Under the pieces are notes generated by a model. The model made no database searches and was not told the origin of the DNA. It saw only the letters and a list, made by a program, of their open reading frames with translations. 64,000 nucleotides of DNA from Escherichia coli (GTDB taxonomy: Bacteria; Pseudomonadota; Gammaproteobacteria; Enterobacterales; Enterobacteriaceae): the NCBI RefSeq assembly GCF_041886205.1, contig NZ_CP169029.1, one strand, 5' to 3'. Position numbers and translations under genes: made by a program. Of the stretch, positions 47,366-56,900 are shown in pieces. Within the stretch, counting starts at the first letter, position 1. Every line of letters starts with the position of its first letter.

Positions 47366-48544
47366 ATGCAATTGCGTAAATTACTGCTGCCAGGACTGCT
47401 TTCCGTTACCCTTTTAAGCGGCTGTTCGCTGTTTAACAGCGAAGAAGATGTGGTAAAGATGTCCCCATTGCCAACCGTTGAAAACCAGTTTACGCCGACC
47501 ACGGCGTGGAGCACTTCCGTTGGTAGCGGCATTGGCAACTTCTATTCCAATCTTCATCCGGCACTGGCGGACAACGTTGTCTATGCAGCGGACCGCGCTG
47601 GTTTAGTAAAAGCGCTGAATGCGGATGATGGCAAAGAAATCTGGTCTGTCAGCCTGGCCGAGAAAGATGGCTGGTTCTCTAAAGAGCCTGCATTACTTTC
47701 TGGCGGTGTGACCGTGTCTGGTGGGCATGTCTACATTGGCAGCGAAAAGGCGCAGGTTTACGCGCTGAATACCAGCGATGGTACTGTGGCATGGCAAACT
47801 AAAGTCGCGGGTGAAGCACTTTCGCGCCCGGTGGTCAGCGACGGTCTGGTGTTAATCCACACCAGTAACGGTCAGTTACAAGCGCTGAACGAAGCTGACG
47901 GCGCTGTCAAATGGACAGTTAACCTCGATATGCCTTCGCTCTCTTTGCGTGGCGAGTCTGCGCCGGCAACGGCTTTTGGTGCGGCCGTCGTGGGGGGCGA
48001 TAATGGTCGCGTCAGCGCAGTGCTGATGGAACAGGGCCAGATGATTTGGCAGCAGCGTATTTCCCAGGCGACCGGTTCTACCGAAATTGACCGTCTGAGC
48101 GATGTTGACACGACTCCCGTCGTTGTTAACGGCGTTGTTTTCGCGCTGGCCTATAATGGTAACCTGACGGCGCTTGATCTGCGCAGTGGTCAGATTATGT
48201 GGAAACGCGAACTGGGTTCGGTGAATGATTTCATCGTCGACGGCAATCGCATCTATCTGGTCGATCAAAATGACCGGGTGATGGCGTTGACCATTGATGG
48301 CGGCGTTACGCTGTGGACACAAAGCGATCTGCTGCATCGCCTGCTGACTTCTCCGGTGCTGTATAATGGCAACCTGGTGGTCGGTGACAGTGAAGGTTAT
48401 TTGCACTGGATTAACGTCGAAGATGGTCGTTTCGTTGCCCAGCAAAAAGTTGATAGTTCCGGTTTCCAGACTGAACCGGTTGCCGCTGACGGCAAACTGC
48501 TGATCCAGGCAAAAGACGGAACCGTGTACTCTATTACACGTTAA
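47366..48544 (+). CDS. bamB: Outer-membrane assembly lipoprotein BamB
   Basis: 392 aa; lipobox LLSGCSLF; PQQ-like beta-propeller repeats. Confidence 0.9.
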   Translation: MQLRKLLLPGLLSVTLLSGCSLFNSEEDVVKMSPLPTVENQFTPTTAWSTSVGSGIGNFYSNLHPALADNVVYAADRAGLVKALNADDGKEIWSVSLAEKDGWFSKEPALLSGGVTVSGGHVYIGSEKAQVYALNTSDGTVAWQTKVAGEALSRPVVSDGLVLIHTSNGQLQALNEADGAVKWTVNLDMPSLSLRGESAPATAFGAAVVGGDNGRVSAVLMEQGQMIWQQRISQATGSTEIDRLSDVDTTPVVVNGVVFALAYNGNLTALDLRSGQIMWKRELGSVNDFIVDGNRIYLVDQNDRVMALTIDGGVTLWTQSDLLHRLLTSPVLYNGNLVVGDSEGYLHWINVEDGRFVAQQKVDSSGFQTEPVAADGKLLIQAKDGTVYSITR

Positions 48545-48565
48545 TCGTCTCTGTCGTTCACTTTG

Positions 48566-48603
48566 AAAACGGCTCCTGGACAGGGGCCGTTTTCCTGTTT
48601 TTA
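48566..48603 (+). terminator. Putative intrinsic terminator after bamB
   Basis: aaaacggc…gccgtttt stem followed by cctgttttt. Confidence 0.5.
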
Positions 48604-48661
48604 ACAACGACGCGAATATAGCGTGCGTTGTCTGATGATTTATAAAAATGAGGCTTTAAAC

Positions 48662-50134
48662 ATGGTACCTGTGGTCGCGCTTGTCGGGCGCCCTAACGTA
48701 GGAAAATCCACGTTATTTAACCGTCTAACTCGCACCCGAGATGCGCTGGTTGCGGATTTCCCGGGTCTGACTCGTGACCGTAAGTACGGTCGTGCGGAAA
48801 TTGAAGGCCGTGAGTTTATCTGTATTGATACCGGCGGGATTGATGGCACAGAAGACGGTGTAGAAACCCGCATGGCGGAACAGTCGCTGCTGGCGATTGA
48901 AGAAGCGGACGTCGTACTGTTTATGGTGGATGCGCGCGCGGGCCTGATGCCGGCAGATGAAGCGATTGCCAAACATCTGCGCTCCCGTGAAAAACCGACC
49001 TTCCTGGTGGCAAACAAAACTGACGGTCTGGATCCCGATCAGGCAGTGGTTGATTTCTACTCGCTTGGTTTAGGTGAAATCTACCCGATCGCCGCGTCTC
49101 ACGGTCGTGGCGTATTAAGTCTGCTGGAGCATGTGCTGCTGCCGTGGATGGAAGATCTCGCACCGCAAGAGGAAGTCGACGAAGACGCTGAATACTGGGC
49201 GCAATTTGAAGCGGAAGAGAACGGCGAAGAAGAAGAGGAAGACGACTTCGACCCGCAAAGTCTGCCGATCAAACTGGCGATTGTGGGTCGTCCGAACGTA
49301 GGTAAGTCTACACTCACTAACCGTATTCTTGGTGAAGAGCGCGTTGTTGTTTACGACATGCCTGGCACGACGCGTGACAGCATCTACATCCCAATGGAAC
49401 GCGATGGACGTGAGTATGTGCTCATTGACACCGCTGGCGTACGTAAACGCGGCAAAATCACCGATGCTGTAGAGAAATTCTCCGTAATCAAAACGTTGCA
49501 GGCCATTGAAGACGCCAACGTGGTGATGTTAGTGATTGATGCGCGCGAAGGTATTTCCGATCAGGATCTCTCGCTGCTGGGCTTTATTCTCAATAGTGGG
49601 CGCTCACTTGTCATTGTGGTGAATAAGTGGGATGGCCTGAGTCAGGAAGTGAAAGAGCAGGTGAAAGAAACGCTGGACTTCCGTCTGGGCTTTATCGATT
49701 TTGCTCGAGTGCACTTTATCTCTGCCTTGCACGGCAGTGGTGTTGGTAACTTGTTTGAATCAGTACGTGAAGCGTATGACAGCTCCACCCGTCGTGTGGG
49801 GACCTCTATGCTGACGCGCATCATGACGATGGCTGTTGAAGATCACCAACCGCCGCTGGTACGCGGTCGTCGTGTGAAGCTGAAATATGCCCACGCCGGT
49901 GGTTATAACCCGCCGATTGTGGTGATTCACGGTAATCAGGTGAAAGACCTGCCTGATTCCTACAAGCGCTACTTGATGAACTACTTCCGCAAATCGCTGG
50001 ACGTAATGGGATCGCCGATTCGTATTCAGTTCAAAGAAGGGGAAAACCCGTATGCGAATAAGCGTAACACCCTGACGCCAACTCAGATGCGTAAACGTAA
50101 GCGTCTGATGAAGCACATCAAGAAAAGTAAGTAA
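48662..50134 (+). CDS. der: Ribosome-assembly GTPase Der (EngA), double GTPase
   Basis: Two G1 motifs (GRPNVGKST twice) and a KH-like C-terminus. ATG at 48662 gives 490 aa; the track ORF starts 13 codons upstream. Confidence 0.9.
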
Positions 50135-50196
50135 TTACTTATCTGGTTTCCCTTTTCGCATGGAGAGGGAAACCGAATAACACGCGAGGAGTATTG

Positions 50197-50412
50197 ATGG
50201 AATTCACTTGCCCAACCTGCCATAAACCTCTCGAACACCACGGCGAGACGGCTCACTGCGTAACTTGCGATAAAGATTTCACCATCCAGGCACGTTGCCC
50301 TGACTGCCATCAGCCGCTACAGGTGTTAAAGGCTTGTGGCGCTGTGGACTATTTCTGTCAACATGGTCACGGATTAATTTCTAAAAAACGCGTTGAGTTT
50401 ATTATCGCTTAA
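50197..50412 (+). CDS. yfgJ: Small zinc-ribbon protein YfgJ
   Basis: 71 aa with four CxxC pairs (CPTC, CVTC, CPDC, CQHGH). Confidence 0.75.
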   Translation: MEFTCPTCHKPLEHHGETAHCVTCDKDFTIQARCPDCHQPLQVLKACGAVDYFCQHGHGLISKKRVEFIIA

Positions 50413-50427
50413 TATCATTCGAATGTA

Positions 50428-50466
50428 TGGTTTTATCATTTGTATTTAATATACAAATGATAAAAC
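50428..50466. repeat. Perfect 17-bp-arm inverted repeat at the left edge of the adhesin island
   Basis: ggttttatcatttgtat-ttaat-atacaaatgataaaacc, read directly; located 15 nt after the yfgJ stop in an AT-rich spacer. Confidence 0.8.
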
Positions 50467-50621
50467 CTTCTCTTATTAGTTAAATCATTAATACATGTGA
50501 GTAAAATTATTTAGATATATTTTTAGGAATATATTTAGTTTTTCTGACGTGCCTTCCTGAATGTTCTGGCATAGAATATTAGAGCTTATTCATCAAATTA
50601 TCATTGCCACAGGGAAAGTGC

Positions 50622-52796
50622 ATGCTGCGATGGAGTCGCTTTATTATGTTACTATTCATCTCTGCTGCAACTCCTGCGGCAGAGATAAATAGTAAGCAAA
50701 ACGAATCGTTACCTGATTTAGGCAGCCAGGCGGCTCAACAAGTAGAACAAACGGATAAGGGTAAATCGTTAAAAGAGCGTGGAGCCGATTACGTCATTGA
50801 TTCTGCTACGCAAGGGTTTGAAAACCTAACCCCCGAGGCGCTGGAATCTCAGGCCAGAAGCTATCTGCAAAGTCAAATCACCTCAACCGCACAATCTTAT
50901 ATTGAAGACACACTCTCTCCCTACGGTAAGGTCCGTTCGAATCTCTCTATTGGTCAGGGTGGCGATCTGGATGGTAGCTCCATCGATTATTTTGTTCCCT
51001 GGTATGATAATCAAACGACCGTTTATTTCAGTCAATTTTCTGCGCAACGAAAAGAGGATCGTACGATCGGGAATATCGGAATTGGAGTAAGACATAATTT
51101 CGATGAATGGCTTTTGGGTGGGAATATATTTTACGATTATGATTTCACCCGTGGGCATCGTCGTTTAGGTTTAGGGACAGAAGCCTGGACCAATTATTTA
51201 AAATTTTCTGGCAACTATTATCATCCGCTCTCTGACTGGAAAAACTCTGAGGATTTCGACTTTTATGAAGAGCGTCCGGCGCGCGGTTGGGATATTCGTG
51301 CTGAAGCCTGGTTACCTTCTTATCCACAACTGGGGGGCAAGATTGTCTTCGAGCAATATTACGGTGATGAAGTCGCCCTTTTTGGTACGGATAATTTAGA
51401 GAAAGATCCCTATGCGGTGACGCTAGGACTAAATTATCAACCGGTACCGTTACTGACAGTTGGAACGGATTATAAAGCGGGGACCGGAGATAACAGCGAT
51501 GTCAGCATTAATGCCACTCTTAATTATCAGTTCGGCGTTCCGCTAAAAGATCAACTCGACAGCGATAAAGTAAAAGCAGTCCACTCGTTGATGGGTAGCC
51601 GACAGGACTTTGTCGAGCGTAATAACTTTATCGTCCTGGAATATAAAGAGAAAGACCCTCTGGATGTGACGTTGTGGCTGAAAGCGGATGCGACCAACGA
51701 GCATCCAGAGTGCGTCATTAAGGACACTCCTGAAGCGGCGGTCGGTCTGGAAAAATGTAAGTGGACCATTAACGCACTGATCAATCACCACTACAAAATT
51801 GTCGCTGCGTCATGGCAGGCGAAAAACAATGCCGCCCGCACGCTGGTGATGCCGGTCATCAAAGAAAATACCATCACTGAAGGCAACAACAACCACTGGA
51901 ATCTGATACTGCCAGCCTGGCAGTACAGCTCTGACAAAGCTGAGCAGGAAAAACTCAATACCTGGCGGGTACGGCTGGCGCTGGAAGATGAAAAAGGTAA
52001 TCGGCAAAACTCCGGCCTGGTGGAAATCACTGTTCAGCAGGACCGTAAAATAGAGCTTATCGTCAATAACATTGCCGATGCGCCTGCCGAGAATAACCAC
52101 AGCCATGAAGCCAGCGCTCAGGCGGATGGCGTTGATGGTGTAGTCATGGACCTCGAGGTGACGGACAGTTTTGGCGATAACACGGACCGCAACGGTGATG
52201 CTCTGCCAGAAGATAATCTTGCACCGCAGCTCTACGACGCTCAGGACAAAAAAGTCACGCTAACCAATAAACCCTGCTCGACCGACAACCCCTGCGTGTT
52301 TATTGCCAAACAAGATAAAGAAAAGGGAACGGTAACCCTCTCCAGTACATTGCCAGGCGTTTTCCGCTGGAAAGCGAAAGCGGCTCCCTACGATGACAGT
52401 AACTATGTGGATGTCACGTTTATTGGATCTGATATCGGCGGGCTTAATGCTTTCATTTACCGGCTTGGGGTAGCGAAGCCAGTCAATTTGATCGGCAATG
52501 ATAAAGACCCCCTGCCGCTGGGCAACACGTACCGATTTGTGTTGTGGCGTGATGCCAACAAAGACGGCGTTTTTCAGCAGTCGGAAAAACTAACCGATGA
52601 AGAGATGACTCAGTACGACTACAAGTGGGAATTTACCGGCAAGAGCATCAATGGCGAAGTAGGTGCGCAGGCGAACACATCCAATGCAGACATTGTAATA
52701 CCGGCGACCAACCGTGAAGCGGCGCAATCCTATGGTGCAAAAGTGGAAGATGGCTTGCAGGGATACGGTTTACGCGTGCTGTACACCAAAAAATAA
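50622..52796 (+). CDS. sinH: Intimin/invasin-family inverse autotransporter (SinH-like)
   Basis: Signal peptide MLRWSRFIMLLFISAATPAA; intimin/invasin-like beta-domain motifs (GNIGIGVRH, YYHPLSDWK, GWDIRAEAWLPSYPQLGGK, EQYYGDEVALFG) followed by passenger domains. An alternative TTG at 50604 would give the 730-aa track ORF. Confidence 0.75.
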   Translation: MLRWSRFIMLLFISAATPAAEINSKQNESLPDLGSQAAQQVEQTDKGKSLKERGADYVIDSATQGFENLTPEALESQARSYLQSQITSTAQSYIEDTLSPYGKVRSNLSIGQGGDLDGSSIDYFVPWYDNQTTVYFSQFSAQRKEDRTIGNIGIGVRHNFDEWLLGGNIFYDYDFTRGHRRLGLGTEAWTNYLKFSGNYYHPLSDWKNSEDFDFYEERPARGWDIRAEAWLPSYPQLGGKIVFEQYYGDEVALFGTDNLEKDPYAVTLGLNYQPVPLLTVGTDYKAGTGDNSDVSINATLNYQFGVPLKDQLDSDKVKAVHSLMGSRQDFVERNNFIVLEYKEKDPLDVTLWLKADATNEHPECVIKDTPEAAVGLEKCKWTINALINHHYKIVAASWQAKNNAARTLVMPVIKENTITEGNNNHWNLILPAWQYSSDKAEQEKLNTWRVRLALEDEKGNRQNSGLVEITVQQDRKIELIVNNIADAPAENNHSHEASAQADGVDGVVMDLEVTDSFGDNTDRNGDALPEDNLAPQLYDAQDKKVTLTNKPCSTDNPCVFIAKQDKEKGTVTLSSTLPGVFRWKAKAAPYDDSNYVDVTFIGSDIGGLNAFIYRLGVAKPVNLIGNDKDPLPLGNTYRFVLWRDANKDGVFQQSEKLTDEEMTQYDYKWEFTGKSINGEVGAQANTSNADIVIPATNREAAQSYGAKVEDGLQGYGLRVLYTKK

Positions 52797-52850
52797 GATT
52801 GGCGTAAGGCCAGTCGGCCAGTCGCTGAAGATTCATTAAGGAGAGACTCA

Positions 52851-53828
52851 ATGAAGCAGGACAAAAGACGCGGTCTGACCCGGATCGCATTGGCGCTGGC
52901 ACTGGCGGGTTACTGCGTGACGCCCCTTGCGCTGGCGGAAGACAGCGCGTGGATCGAGAGCGGCGAGACCAATATTTTCCAGGGGACTATTCCGTGGCTC
53001 TATTCGGAAGGAGGAAATGCTACGACAGATGCCGACCATGTAACGTTGACTTCTGATCTAAAAGGCGCTCGCCCGCAAGGCAGTGAAACGGACAAGCGTC
53101 TTTACTCGGGTGATAAACTAACCGTAAGCTGGGAGATTGGCGATACTGAAGGCGACGTCGATCTTGGTACGGCGGGTAAAGATGCAAAAACCATCGATAC
53201 CATCCGCTGGATGAGCTACAAGGACGCCCAGGGGGGCGATCCAAAAGAGCTGGCAACGAAGGTGACCACTTACACCCTTACCGATGCCGACCGTGGACGC
53301 TATATCGGTATTGAAATTACCCCAACCACCCAGACGGGTACGCCATACGTTGGGACTGCGCTGCATCTTTATGATGTTTCAAATGCTAACGGCGGGGGAA
53401 GCGATGAAGATAACGTTGATCCAGGACCGGTAGTTAACCAGAACCTGAAAGTCGCCATCTTTGTTAAAGACACTACGACCAACCTTATTAACGGCAATAC
53501 GCCAATCCAGTTGGGCAAAACGTACGTCGCCAAACTGTACTCGGATGAGAACAAAAACGGTCGGTATGACGCGGGTACTGACGTTGATGTTACCACCAAT
53601 TATGACTACCGTTGGGTACTCTCTGGCAGCAGCCAACAGCTCAGCACCTCGGGTGGTATCGTTAACTCAAGCTTCGATAATCAAAACCTGGTCATCCCTG
53701 CGACCAACGACGAAGCCAGAACCAACCTTAACGGCCCTGCTCGTGATGGCAAAGAGGCTCTTGCGATCCCGACCAACGGCGATGGGGTTCAGGGTTACAA
53801 ACTGCAAATTATCTACAAACACAAATAA
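52851..53828 (+). CDS. Secreted SinI-like protein with a C-terminal module shared with the SinH-like protein
   Basis: 325 aa; AAGGAG RBS; signal peptide (ALALAGYCVTPLALA); C-terminal ~110 aa align by eye with the SinH-like C-terminus (YDYKW/YDYRW, IPATN-EA, QGYGL/QGYKL). Confidence 0.75.
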   Translation: MKQDKRRGLTRIALALALAGYCVTPLALAEDSAWIESGETNIFQGTIPWLYSEGGNATTDADHVTLTSDLKGARPQGSETDKRLYSGDKLTVSWEIGDTEGDVDLGTAGKDAKTIDTIRWMSYKDAQGGDPKELATKVTTYTLTDADRGRYIGIEITPTTQTGTPYVGTALHLYDVSNANGGGSDEDNVDPGPVVNQNLKVAIFVKDTTTNLINGNTPIQLGKTYVAKLYSDENKNGRYDAGTDVDVTTNYDYRWVLSGSSQQLSTSGGIVNSSFDNQNLVIPATNDEARTNLNGPARDGKEALAIPTNGDGVQGYKLQIIYKHK

Positions 53829-53839
53829 CACTTGCTCAA

Positions 53840-53868
53840 CAGCATTCCCGCGTGGGAATGCTGTTTCC
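53840..53868 (+). terminator. Putative intrinsic terminator after the sinI-like gene
   Basis: cagcattccc-gcgt-gggaatgctg hairpin followed by tttcc. Confidence 0.45.
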
Positions 53869-53948
53869 GCATATTTTGCTTAATTCAGGATTAAGCAAAA
53901 TATGTTGATGCGGTAACCGTTCGTTAAATAACTGGTGGAGTTCTTTTC

Positions 53949-56900
53949 ATGTCCCAGCCCCTGAAACCCGGCACTTTTTATGTTCTGCTTGTATTGCTGC
54001 TAACCGCAATGCTGCCGGGATGGTCATGGGCGGGCTCGTCATGGCAAGACTCATCCGATACGGCGGGAGAATTTAACGGTACCGTCCCCAATGCCGACAG
54101 CGCCAGTATGCCGGTTTATCAGGGCAGTATTTGGCTTGATCCTGCAAAGACCCATGATGTTTCGTTTTCCGCTAAACCCAATGAATTTAGCGTTAATCTG
54201 GATGTGTCGAAGCTGATTGTGACGAACCCGCAGGACCTGGAAGGGGATGTGTTTACCAACCCCCGTTGGGAAAACCAAACGCCGCCAGCGGTCTCTTTAG
54301 TCTGGGCGGATGCGGCGACACCGGAAACCCCACTTAATCCTCAGCCAGTGGCTGGGCGTTCCTTTTGTGCGCAAGGGCTTGCTGGGCGTTCGCTGGTTGT
54401 CTGGCCGCAGCCAGACCCACAGCAGACCATGCCGCAACTTTATCTACGCACCTCGACAGGTTATCCCTATGAAAGTCTTCTGACGCTTGTCGATAAAAAA
54501 GTGACGTTAAATATTGCACCGGCCCAGGGCGACTTAATTTCTGTCAGTGCGGCCGGTTATGACGATACCGTGGGCGGGGCGAAAACTACCGTTGGCGGCA
54601 ATATCACGTTGACCGTTACCACCAAAGACTGCAGCGGCAACGTTGCAGGAAATATTCCTTTTATTATCAAACGCAAAGATGCTGAAAACCGACAGGGTGA
54701 GGTCAACAATGCTTCGCCGGTTGTTCTGGACAAAACTGAACTGACCACTATCGCGACCGAATATCACGGCACCACGGATGCGAACGGCGTTGCGACGATC
54801 ACGGTCACGCAACCCAACGGCCCTGGTGTAAAAACGCCGCTGGTAGCCAGTCTTTCAGGTATTGGTCAAACCAGTGAAACGGCAGTGATCTTTACCGTCC
54901 TTACCAGCCCGGATGTCCCTCAGGCCACGATGTGGGGCCATATGCCCGATACGCTAAAGGCCCATGATTATACGTTCAGTCGGCCAAAATTGGCGGCAGA
55001 AGTCGATAACGAAAATGGTACCGTTAACGATCACAATGAAACCTGGTCTACCTTCACCTGGAGCGGGGCGGATAAACATTGCGACATTTTGCCCGGTATG
55101 CGCCAGTTTGGCGCGTTGGCAACGGTGGTGCCCACGACAGTTCAGGATCTCGTTGGTTGGCCGATACAGGGTAACTACTACTGGTCATCACTGGCGGGGA
55201 TGACCGGACAGCACCATGCGGCGGATGTTTCCAACCGTAGCGAAGCGCAAAAACCGGACGATACGACGTTTATTGTCAGTTGTGTCGATAAAGAAGCTCC
55301 TGACGTTGAACCGAAACTGGTGCTAACACCGGGAAGCTATGATTCGACGTTAAAGGCGATGAAAGTAAAGGTGGGGGAAGAAGCGTCTCTGCGTGTAACC
55401 ATCACCGATAATAAAAACAATAATCAACCGCTGGCGTATTACTACTTTTCGTTACATCTGGATGACGGCATCAACCGTAAAAATCCATCGGATGCGGCAT
55501 GGGAAGCGCATCCGGTGCAGATAGCGGGTGGCAGCAATGTCCATCAGGTTGACGCGCATACCTATGAAGGCATTACGGATGTAAATGGTCAGGCATCACT
55601 GACGCTAACGCAACCGGGCGGCGCGGGCGTGAAAACACACATTACTGCGAAAATGCGCAGCGACTTCACCACGTCGGATGAGAAAGACGTGATTTTTACA
55701 GTCATTACCAGCCCCGATACTGACAAAGCCCGGATGTGGGGGCATATGCAGGGTATTATTGATTCTAATAATATCTTTAAACGTCCACGGCTGGCAGATG
55801 AAACCGACCATGAACTCGGTTCAGTGCGGGAGAACAACGAAGACTGGGCGCTGTTCGACCAAAATAGCAGCATGCAGGCTGAATGCGGTGTAGGTCATAT
55901 TCCGAGCCAGAATCAATTACAGGGTCTGTTCACGGCGCATCCTGGCAATGCGATTGGCACCGAATATGGCTGGCCGACGGCGCAAAAAGATTACCTTAGT
56001 GCGGTACAACAAGAGCCACACTCCTCCGTGAACCTGGGCACAGGTAACATCGACACCTATTCAGGCTTTAAGCAGAACTATCTCTCCTGTTCCGGTAATG
56101 AGATGGTTGCTCAGATTACCGCAACGACCGATCATGACGTTTCCGTGGGCAGCAGGGCGCAGGCTAAAGTTGGAGAAACCGTCACCATGACGGTGCATAC
56201 CTTCAATGCACTGAATAATGCGCCCGTGCCGTTTACCGCCTTCAGCATCACAAAGGAGATGGGTAAAAACCGTCAGGGGCAGACTACCGGATATACCGAT
56301 CCGACGAGTGGCGCAATTGAGATGAATGGCACGCTCTACGGAACATCCCAGGCCTCGGTGGTTTATTCCGGGACTACGGATGCACAGGGCTACGCAACGG
56401 TGGAGATTGAACAACCCCAGGGCGTGGGCTTAATTACGCCGCTAAATATTGCGCCTGTGAACTCCTATATTCCCAATACAGTAAATTACAACGTGATTTT
56501 CACCACGCCTACCAGCCCGGATGTGGTGGCGGCGCAGATGTGGGGGCATATGGATGAGACTATTACAGTCGATTCTTTAACCTTCACCCGGCCTAAACTG
56601 GCAGCGGAAGTTTCCAGCCCGGATGCGACATTGACAGAAAATAATGAAGTCTGGGCACGTGTGAGTCAGGCGAATACGTCCAGTATAAGTAAAGGTGGCT
56701 GTGGAGCGAATATGCTGCCGCGTCGATCCCAGCTTAGCGCGCTCTATGAGGCTAATAACGGTAATGCTGTACAAACAGTACACGGCTGGCCAACCCTGCG
56801 TGAGCCGTACTGGAGTAGTTCCCCAGCGGATAAAGTTCCTCATTTTTACACCATTGCACTCAATGATGGCGCACAGGCTATTGGCGGTAGCAACGCGGTT

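Follow-up and report, generated by a model that had tools for sequence, protein, structure and literature searches.

What is the perfect palindrome between yfgJ and sinH: the end of the upstream transcript, a site through which a regulator would act on sinH, or a trace of the arrival of the cluster? We addressed this question in a 64-kb stretch of Escherichia coli DNA, referred to throughout as the window, which is 100% identical to E. coli LHM10-1 (NZ_CP037903.1) over 501 nt around the palindrome and differs from it by 5 mismatches across 48000-64000. A sinH-sinI-ratA ("ila", CS54-like) cluster has been located between xseA and yfgJ in ExPEC (PMC12928451, PMC6714894, PMC9937491), and the corresponding features of the window are the following.

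48662-50134, + strand: der (annotation of NZ_CP037903.1)
50197-50412, + strand: yfgJ, encoding a zinc-ribbon protein, with its stop codon at 50410-50412 (NZ_CP037903.1 annotation, list of open reading frames, sequence)
50429-50445, + strand: left (5') arm of the palindrome, GGTTTTATCATTTGTAT (inverted-repeat search, 100% complementary; RNA fold)
50446-50450, + strand: loop, TTAAT (sequence, repeat search, RNA fold)
50451-50467, + strand: right (3') arm, ATACAAATGATAAAACC (repeat search, RNA fold)
50468-50479, + strand: T-rich tail TTCTCTTATTAG, a candidate U-tract (terminator-like scan for stem plus tail)
50622-52796, + strand: sinH, encoding an intimin-like inverse autotransporter, intact in the window (annotation, list of open reading frames)
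52851-53828, + strand: SinI-family gene (annotation of NZ_CP037903.1)
53949-62000, + strand: adhesin gene, 2683 aa (annotation of NZ_CP037903.1)
62120-63496, - strand: xseA (annotation of NZ_CP037903.1)

The sinH gene of LHM10-1 is annotated as a pseudogene with an internal stop; the open reading frame of the window is uninterrupted, at 724 codons plus the stop, so the window derives from a close relative of that strain in which sinH is intact.

Structure, position and copy number of the palindrome

The palindrome consists of two 17-nt arms, 100% complementary, around the 5-nt loop, and is given in this form by both the sequence and the repeat search. It starts 16 nt past the yfgJ stop codon and ends 154 nt ahead of the sinH ATG. 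The first-pass annotation had placed the repeat at 50428-50466; its arms are fully complementary as described, but the repeat in fact covers 50429-50467, shifted rightward by one base. The T-rich tract noted there behind the stem is also present, as TTCTCTTATT directly 3' of the stem, with T at five of the first eight bases. The stem itself is long and AT-rich (4 G-C pairs out of 17), and in the window allele two G-C pairs at its base are followed at once by UU, where the common E. coli alleles carry A-U/U-A instead of G-C.

Folded as RNA, the 39-nt palindrome reaches -21.1 kcal/mol (z = -6.97) against a shuffle mean of -7.2 kcal/mol, a stability matched by none of 200 dinucleotide shuffles. 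The first-pass annotation held such a repeat to be improbable by chance, and the shuffles agree: 2000 shuffled versions of the 209-nt yfgJ-sinH spacer had longest perfect arms of 6.0 on average and 13 at most, and 20 block-shuffled copies of the whole window gave 8-12, against the 17 observed. Since no shuffle of either spacer or window reaches an arm of 17, chance is excluded. With loops of 3-12 nt allowed, the palindrome is the longest perfect inverted repeat of the window. The second longest lies at 27799-27836 (GCAATAAAAAACCGCC-aaattc-GGCGGTTTTTTATTGC), has the shape of a textbook bidirectional intrinsic terminator, with an A-run ahead and a T-run behind, and adjoins a match to the ryfA RNA (27350-27654).

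No other copy of the palindrome arm was found in the window with up to 3 mismatches, and the genomes that have the palindrome carry one locus each; the second place that appears in records with the near-perfect palindrome is most likely the reverse complement of the same locus. A repeated element of the REP/BIME or MITE type is thus ruled out, the palindrome being single-copy both in the window and per genome. An Rfam search with the hairpin returned only sub-threshold generic miRNA-precursor matches, and a search over the whole window returned nothing at the palindrome locus. The structure of the hairpin, its position and its single copy are therefore established. We found no paper describing a yfgJ-sinH hairpin or a yfgJ terminator, and no 3'-end mapping for any sinH-bearing strain; in the papers found the hairpin is undescribed, and in kind it is an ordinary gene-end stem-loop.

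Core and variable DNA around yfgJ

We compared the locus with K-12, in which the tails of yfgJ and xseA overlap by 4 bp (TTAA) and there is neither spacer nor palindrome. Because K-12 is without any spacer, the palindrome is part of the variable segment. Among 5426 complete E. coli genomes, 3668 have the K-12-type yfgJ-xseA junction and lack the palindrome. The yfgJ-sinH spacer occurs in 1697 of the 5426, and the palindrome is found only together with sinH, so that its absence from genomes lacking the island is likewise established. The exact allele of the window is carried by nine of the 5426 genomes, with one more at 91% identity.

The first-pass annotation had set the palindrome exactly at the junction of a conserved yfgJ with acquired DNA. 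This stands insofar as homology to K-12 DNA ends at the yfgJ stop codon. It does not stand for yfgJ itself, which is not conserved, being 50-77% identical to K-12 against 100% for der. Counted in 60-nt segments, identity to K-12 is 98-100% through der to ~50080, 93% in the segment containing the der stop, and then 63%, 50%, 60%, 77% and 75% in the successive segments across the der-yfgJ spacer and yfgJ. On the right side it recovers gradually within xseA, from 32% at 62101-62160 to 90% or more beyond ~62340. As identity falls from the der stop codon onward, yfgJ lies inside the divergent block, and judged by this profile the left breakpoint of the divergent haplotype is placed at the der stop codon (~50125-50140), ~290 nt upstream of the palindrome, and the haplotype includes yfgJ and the xseA tail (62120-62400) as well. 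The island junction had thus been drawn at the wrong place. That der is K-12-like while the adjoining yfgJ-sinH-sinI-adhesin block is both rare and divergent points to replacement through homologous recombination.

These comparisons bear on whether the palindrome is what remains of a site at which the sinH island integrated or recombined, as the first-pass annotation had also offered. Such an origin might account for the end of K-12 homology 16 nt ahead of the palindrome and for its being missing at all 3668 K-12-type junctions, but we regard it as extremely improbable. The sharp break in identity (100% to 63%) falls at the der stop, ~290 nt upstream, with yfgJ within the divergent block; the palindrome has no second copy or partner repeat in the window; and the stem is under purifying and compensatory selection. 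The cluster itself holds sinH, sinI and the adhesin gene with neither integrase nor tRNA (NZ_CP037903.1 annotation), and its GC content of ~50% equals that of der and the core, the DNA being AT-rich only in the spacer. Moreover, yfgJ lies directly upstream of sinH in five genera, an adjacency seen in E. whittamii, E. albertii and other Escherichia lineages, in Citrobacter sp. MGH106, and in three Pseudocitrobacter and two Superficieibacter genomes, including two loci at which der was not found upstream. The K-12 arrangement looks like a loss, with yfgJ a probable member of the module.

Two further observations concern the edges of the block. In E. albertii and E. coli E69 (loci L015 and L022, ~1-2070), der was not found immediately upstream of yfgJ and other open reading frames are present there, one of which encodes a C-terminal helix-turn-helix that by eye is like AlpA/excisionase-type regulators; just ahead of the der-yfgJ hairpin described below, the final ~21 nt of der (CACATTAAGAAAAGTAAGTAA) are present as a copy. 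In these two genomes a mobile element may thus have entered at the 3' end of der. At the other edge, the stretch of the window from the adhesin stop to the xseA stop (62001-62119) contains a G+C-rich hairpin, GGCCGCC-tac-GGCGGCC, and two REP-like sequences, GCCTGATAAGCGAAGCGCCATCAGGC and GCCGGACAAGGCGCAGCCGCC (- strand), which together with the hairpin make up a BIME-like element.

Conservation of the RNA helix and of the sinH-proximal spacer

Ten E. coli hairpin alleles were aligned (alignment A4), with the stem gap-free, over a 19-pair helix made up of the 17 pairs and two outer pairs that most alleles use. Standard pairs occupy 95.2% of the cells; sliding the 3' partners by 1-3 columns lowers this to 34-51%. 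In five pairs both partners have changed (G-C to U-A at the stem base, U-A to G-C, U-A to A-U, A-U/G-C, and U-A to C-G), and the covariation score was reached by none of 500 shuffles. The changes are also informative about the strand: 20 cells hold G·U, which pairs only as + strand RNA, against 3 with A·C, which would pair only on the - strand, and by our count at least 10 distinct pair positions carry G·U against 3 with A·C. Most of the A-to-G substitutions (U·G wobble) fall in the right arm. Counting the G·U and A·C positions, the DNA dyad is broken in 8 of the 10 alleles, and the perfect palindrome of the window is the allele in which every pair happens to be Watson-Crick. Conservation of the + strand helix is hence established, and because such changes destroy the DNA dyad yet keep + strand pairing, the substitution pattern seen in these sequences fits a + strand RNA hairpin and not a DNA operator.

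Two strains carry IS1 in this short region, as two independent events. In strain 200164 the element lies in the hairpin loop and separates the arms (locus L010, ~590-600), and in strain SC516 it lies in the last yfgJ codons (locus L033, 2746-3525) with the target duplication ACACGCGTT; sinH is intact in both. Since strain 200164 carries IS1 in the loop with sinH intact, the hairpin is dispensable.

The same place was then compared across 20 loci from Escherichia, Citrobacter, Pseudocitrobacter and Superficieibacter. Most of them have a hairpin of unrelated sequence 3-24 nt past the yfgJ stop, and in several lineages it opens merely 3-9 nt past the stop codon. Examples are the following.

E. 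whittamii and related lineages: hairpin GGGAATATAT...ATATATTCC
E. coli SCPM-O-B-8794: 13-bp stem with two G·U pairs
Pseudocitrobacter MAG: 19-bp stem with five G·U pairs
Citrobacter: perfect 16-bp stem, GTCCCGAAATATTCAT/ATGAATATTTCGGGAC

The + strand fold is more stable than the - strand fold at 18 of the 20 loci, often by 10-20 kcal/mol, and its z-score is -2.4 or lower at 14; a composition-corrected z-score asymmetry between the strands is seen at 13. Taken per lineage, the + strand is favoured in 13 of 15 (sign test p ~0.004). The E. albertii locus and two Superficieibacter loci have no significant hairpin (|z| <1.2). Gene-end hairpins typically keep their structure as the sequence changes, and this is the pattern seen here. 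The U-tract does not share this persistence: other alleles and genera have 3-6 T among 8 bases, about the chance level for so AT-rich a spacer, with no T-run behind the Citrobacter and P. vendiensis hairpins and good U-runs in the AST85 and GN03551 alleles.

Conservation of another kind was found 3' of the hairpin, in an alignment of the sinH-proximal spacer (alignment A5; 14 sequences, five genera), which contains two features.

50520-50538, + strand: conserved block TTTTTAGGAATATATTTAG / TTTTTAGGAATnnATTTAG (A5)
50572-50577, + strand: -10-like hexamer TAGAAT (TAnAAT), four of its six positions invariant (T83, A84, A86, T88; A5)

The hexamer lies 33 nt downstream of the block, and the rest of the spacer is not conserved in this alignment. 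We take the hexamer as a putative sinH promoter element, in which case sinH transcription would start near 50584, the centre of the palindrome would lie at ~-136, and the hairpin would be outside the sinH transcription unit. The block is likely to be a real cis-regulatory site of sinH, and likely an upstream activator site at about -64 to -46 of this promoter. Its first 9 bases in B2 alleles (TAAGAATAT) presumably resemble half of an RcsAB box. A simple scan for sigma-70 promoters over 49800-51000 found nothing, a result compatible with a gene that needs activation and stays silent in the laboratory. Overexpression of LeuO raises the mRNA of iatB, the E. coli sinH orthologue, ~15-fold, with no protein detected (PMC6714894).

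The palindrome might on these grounds be a DNA operator for a dimeric regulator of sinH, such as LeuO or another LysR-type protein, or else a nucleation site for H-NS, and the first-pass annotation had named a protein-binding operator among its options. The dyad symmetry is perfect in the window, and the palindrome lies in AT-rich DNA upstream of a gene whose transcript rises 15-fold on LeuO overexpression (PMC6714894). However, the one-arm A-to-G substitutions wreck the dyad and keep the RNA pairing (the 20 G·U against 3 A·C cells), genera share the block at 50520-50538 but not the palindrome sequence, and a centre ~136 nt upstream of the implied sinH start site is an atypical position. We consider an operator very unlikely. 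Candidate motifs for particular proteins were also rejected. A Fur box, considered because the arms contain TTATCATT and AATGATAA, scores at best 11/19 as a 19-mer, a value equalled by 96% of shuffles; CRP-like TGT..ACA and IHF consensus motifs, compared by eye only, have the wrong spacing or bases, and the motif is lost in other alleles.

The proposed end of the der-yfgJ transcript and the expression of sinH

Given an RNA helix at the end of yfgJ, with the conserved block and the -10-like hexamer of sinH downstream of it, the hairpin lies between two transcription units. It forms a stable stem-loop in the sense-strand RNA soon after the stop codon of a co-directional gene, and a scan for consensus terminators flags it (17 pairs, 4 of them G-C, loop of 5, tail TTCTCTTATT). 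A tail score computed for the window allele is -3.87, and other lineages do not keep the tail. Since the U-tract is mediocre (5/8) and not conserved, intrinsic terminator is a class that we only infer for this hairpin. We nevertheless hold, with moderate confidence, that the hairpin closes the der-yfgJ mRNA, most likely by Rho-independent termination of moderate strength, while also protecting the 3' end and insulating sinH. The option of a yfgJ terminator, likewise raised in the first-pass annotation, agrees with the distance of 16 nt from the stop codon, with the retention of the + strand RNA helix and with the hairpins in other genera.

In mechanistic terms, transcription of der-yfgJ on the + strand would yield a 39-nt RNA that folds as the 17-bp hairpin past the yfgJ stop, and the hairpin with the U-rich stretch behind it would form the 3' end of the message. 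The hairpin would act as a Rho-independent terminator of moderate strength and also guard the message against exonucleases. Housekeeping transcription of der-yfgJ would in this way be kept out of the normally silent sinH, which has its own promoter-like elements ~100 nt downstream; it is thus a stop of transcription at the hairpin, and the insulation of sinH resulting from it, that we infer. The yfgJ and xseA transcripts of K-12 are listed as an overlapping convergent pair (PMC12288877), and this overlap fits the absence of a yfgJ terminator once the spacer is gone.

The der-yfgJ spacer holds hairpins of its own. In the window a G+C-rich hairpin, GGTTTCCCT...AGGGAAACC, lies at 50139-50180, past the der stop, and has no T-run. 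K-12 (locus L002, 6835-6875, - strand) has a hairpin of other sequence at the equivalent place, GCCATTCCCTCTA...TAGAGGGAATGGC, and Pseudocitrobacter has yet another. This element is probably an intercistronic RNA structure and not a terminator, and as it has no T-run, yfgJ is probably read through from der.

A long, AT-rich stem whose U-tract is not conserved makes it a serious question whether the hairpin terminates at all. It may instead be a 3'-end protector, with transcription stopping further downstream in the untranslated, AT-rich spacer, through Rho or H-NS-assisted pausing, and exonucleases trimming back; after 3'-5' trimming the hairpin would set and stabilize the mature end of the der-yfgJ mRNA. 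In E. coli, many 3' ends that depend on Rho are found at such hairpins once they have been trimmed. Conservation at the RNA level is what either mechanism would give, and the departure of the stem from canonical terminators, the weak U-tract and the missing T-run in Citrobacter and P. vendiensis all speak for protection. Conversely, UU follows two basal G-C pairs in the window allele, the AST85 and GN03551 alleles have good U-runs, and with so little C in the spacer (GC 0.17-0.31), Rho loading there would be poor. Protection without termination is a close and serious rival to the terminator, to which we give a minor but real share of the probability.

The hairpin could also be a conditional gate, of the attenuator or leader kind, through which part of sinH expression would come from read-through of der-yfgJ, set by the stability of the hairpin or by release of the ribosome at the yfgJ stop. 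The spacing of 3-9 nt from the stop in several lineages puts the hairpin inside the footprint of a terminating ribosome, no strong sigma-70 promoter was found in the spacer, sinH stays silent under laboratory conditions, with only weak induction by LeuO (PMC6714894), and a partial copy of the left arm upstream could pair with the right arm. Yet the cross-genus block and the -10-like hexamer downstream argue for a promoter of sinH's own, only ~6 nt of the alternative pairing are conserved in other alleles, and no conserved antiterminator structure was found. Read-through control by the hairpin appears unlikely to us, and antiterminator pairing of the right arm with the upstream partial repeat was dropped on account of those ~6 conserved nucleotides.

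Beyond the terminator reading, which we retain, the region has other stem-loops. A stable RNA hairpin lies over codons ~10-25 of the sinH signal peptide at 50649-50695, with arms at 50649-50669 and 50675-50695 (21 nt, 90% complementarity, about -29 kcal/mol in the window). Common E. coli alleles have a 22-bp stem here, AACATTTATCTCTGGTGCTGC-TTTC-GCGGCACCAGAGATAAATGTT, of -37 to -45 kcal/mol. In a comparison of 16 Escherichia, Citrobacter and Pseudocitrobacter sequences (the window and loci L003-L009, L011-L015, L019, L021 and L022), 89.2% of cells are paired, against 34-49% in slid controls, with compensatory double changes in 9 of 22 pairs, some at synonymous sites, and a score reached by none of 500 shuffles. 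This hairpin may block sinH translation, which might explain the published finding of more sinH transcript without detectable protein (PMC6714894), and it is more intriguing than the hairpin between yfgJ and sinH.

Two adjacent perfect palindromes follow sinI, at 53838-53865 and 53870-53904 in the sinI-adhesin spacer, and neither matches an Rfam family. The first, AACAGCATTCCC-gcgt-GGGAATGCTGTT followed by TTTCC, has a stem that covaries across genera and looks like a terminator from its sequence. The second, CATATTTTGCTTAAT-tcagg-ATTAAGCAAAATATG, lies ~45 nt ahead of the adhesin ATG; among the loci of Escherichia, Pseudocitrobacter, Citrobacter and Superficieibacter that were compared, its core TTTGCTTA(A/G)...(C/T)TAAGCAAA is kept in sequence in most, with + strand changes of the G·U type. 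It is conceivable, and no better than improbable in our estimate, that the yfgJ-sinH hairpin, the helix in the sinH signal peptide and the two stem-loops after sinI form a joint post-transcriptional layer, for example as targets of RNase III or ProQ, or as a conditional terminator gating leakage of housekeeping der-yfgJ transcription into the otherwise silent adhesin cluster.

For the yfgJ-sinH hairpin the outcome is an unannotated gene-end element added to the der-yfgJ operon of sinH-positive E. coli, of little weight in itself. The spacer as a whole combines a likely insulator against upstream transcription with a conserved candidate regulatory block and a -10-like element, and this layout is useful for studying or engineering the expression of SinH, a vaccine candidate in ExPEC.

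In gene content and position (der, yfgJ, sinH, sinI, a giant adhesin gene and xseA on the opposite strand) the window is like the CS54 island of Salmonella and the ila cluster of E. coli (PMC12928451, PMC6714894). The palindrome belongs to the yfgJ-sinH spacer of this cluster, whose hairpin is described in no paper found, and the cluster allele present in the window is rare, occurring in 9 of the 5426 complete E. coli genomes. The loci retrieved by scanning genomes with SinH peptides came from Escherichia, Citrobacter, Pseudocitrobacter and Superficieibacter, none from Salmonella. With the operator dyads of LeuO and other LysR-type proteins the palindrome shares an AT-rich dyad upstream of a LeuO-responsive gene, but it differs in that the dyad is not conserved as DNA and in its atypical position at ~-136. 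Like 3'-end stabilizing hairpins, such as intercistronic or REP-type stem-loops and those at trimmed Rho-dependent ends, it is a long, stable, sense-strand hairpin at the end of a coding region with no strict need for a U-tract; unlike REP it is single-copy, and its spacer is C-poor. Compared with the intrinsic terminators of Enterobacteriaceae, the stem is about twice the usual length and AT-rich (4/17 G-C), and the U-tract, interrupted in the window (UUCUCUUA), is not kept by orthologous spacers. Like them, however, it is a stable sense-strand stem-loop near a stop codon followed by a U-rich stretch, it is unidirectional, with no T-run on the other strand, and it keeps its structure while its sequence drifts.
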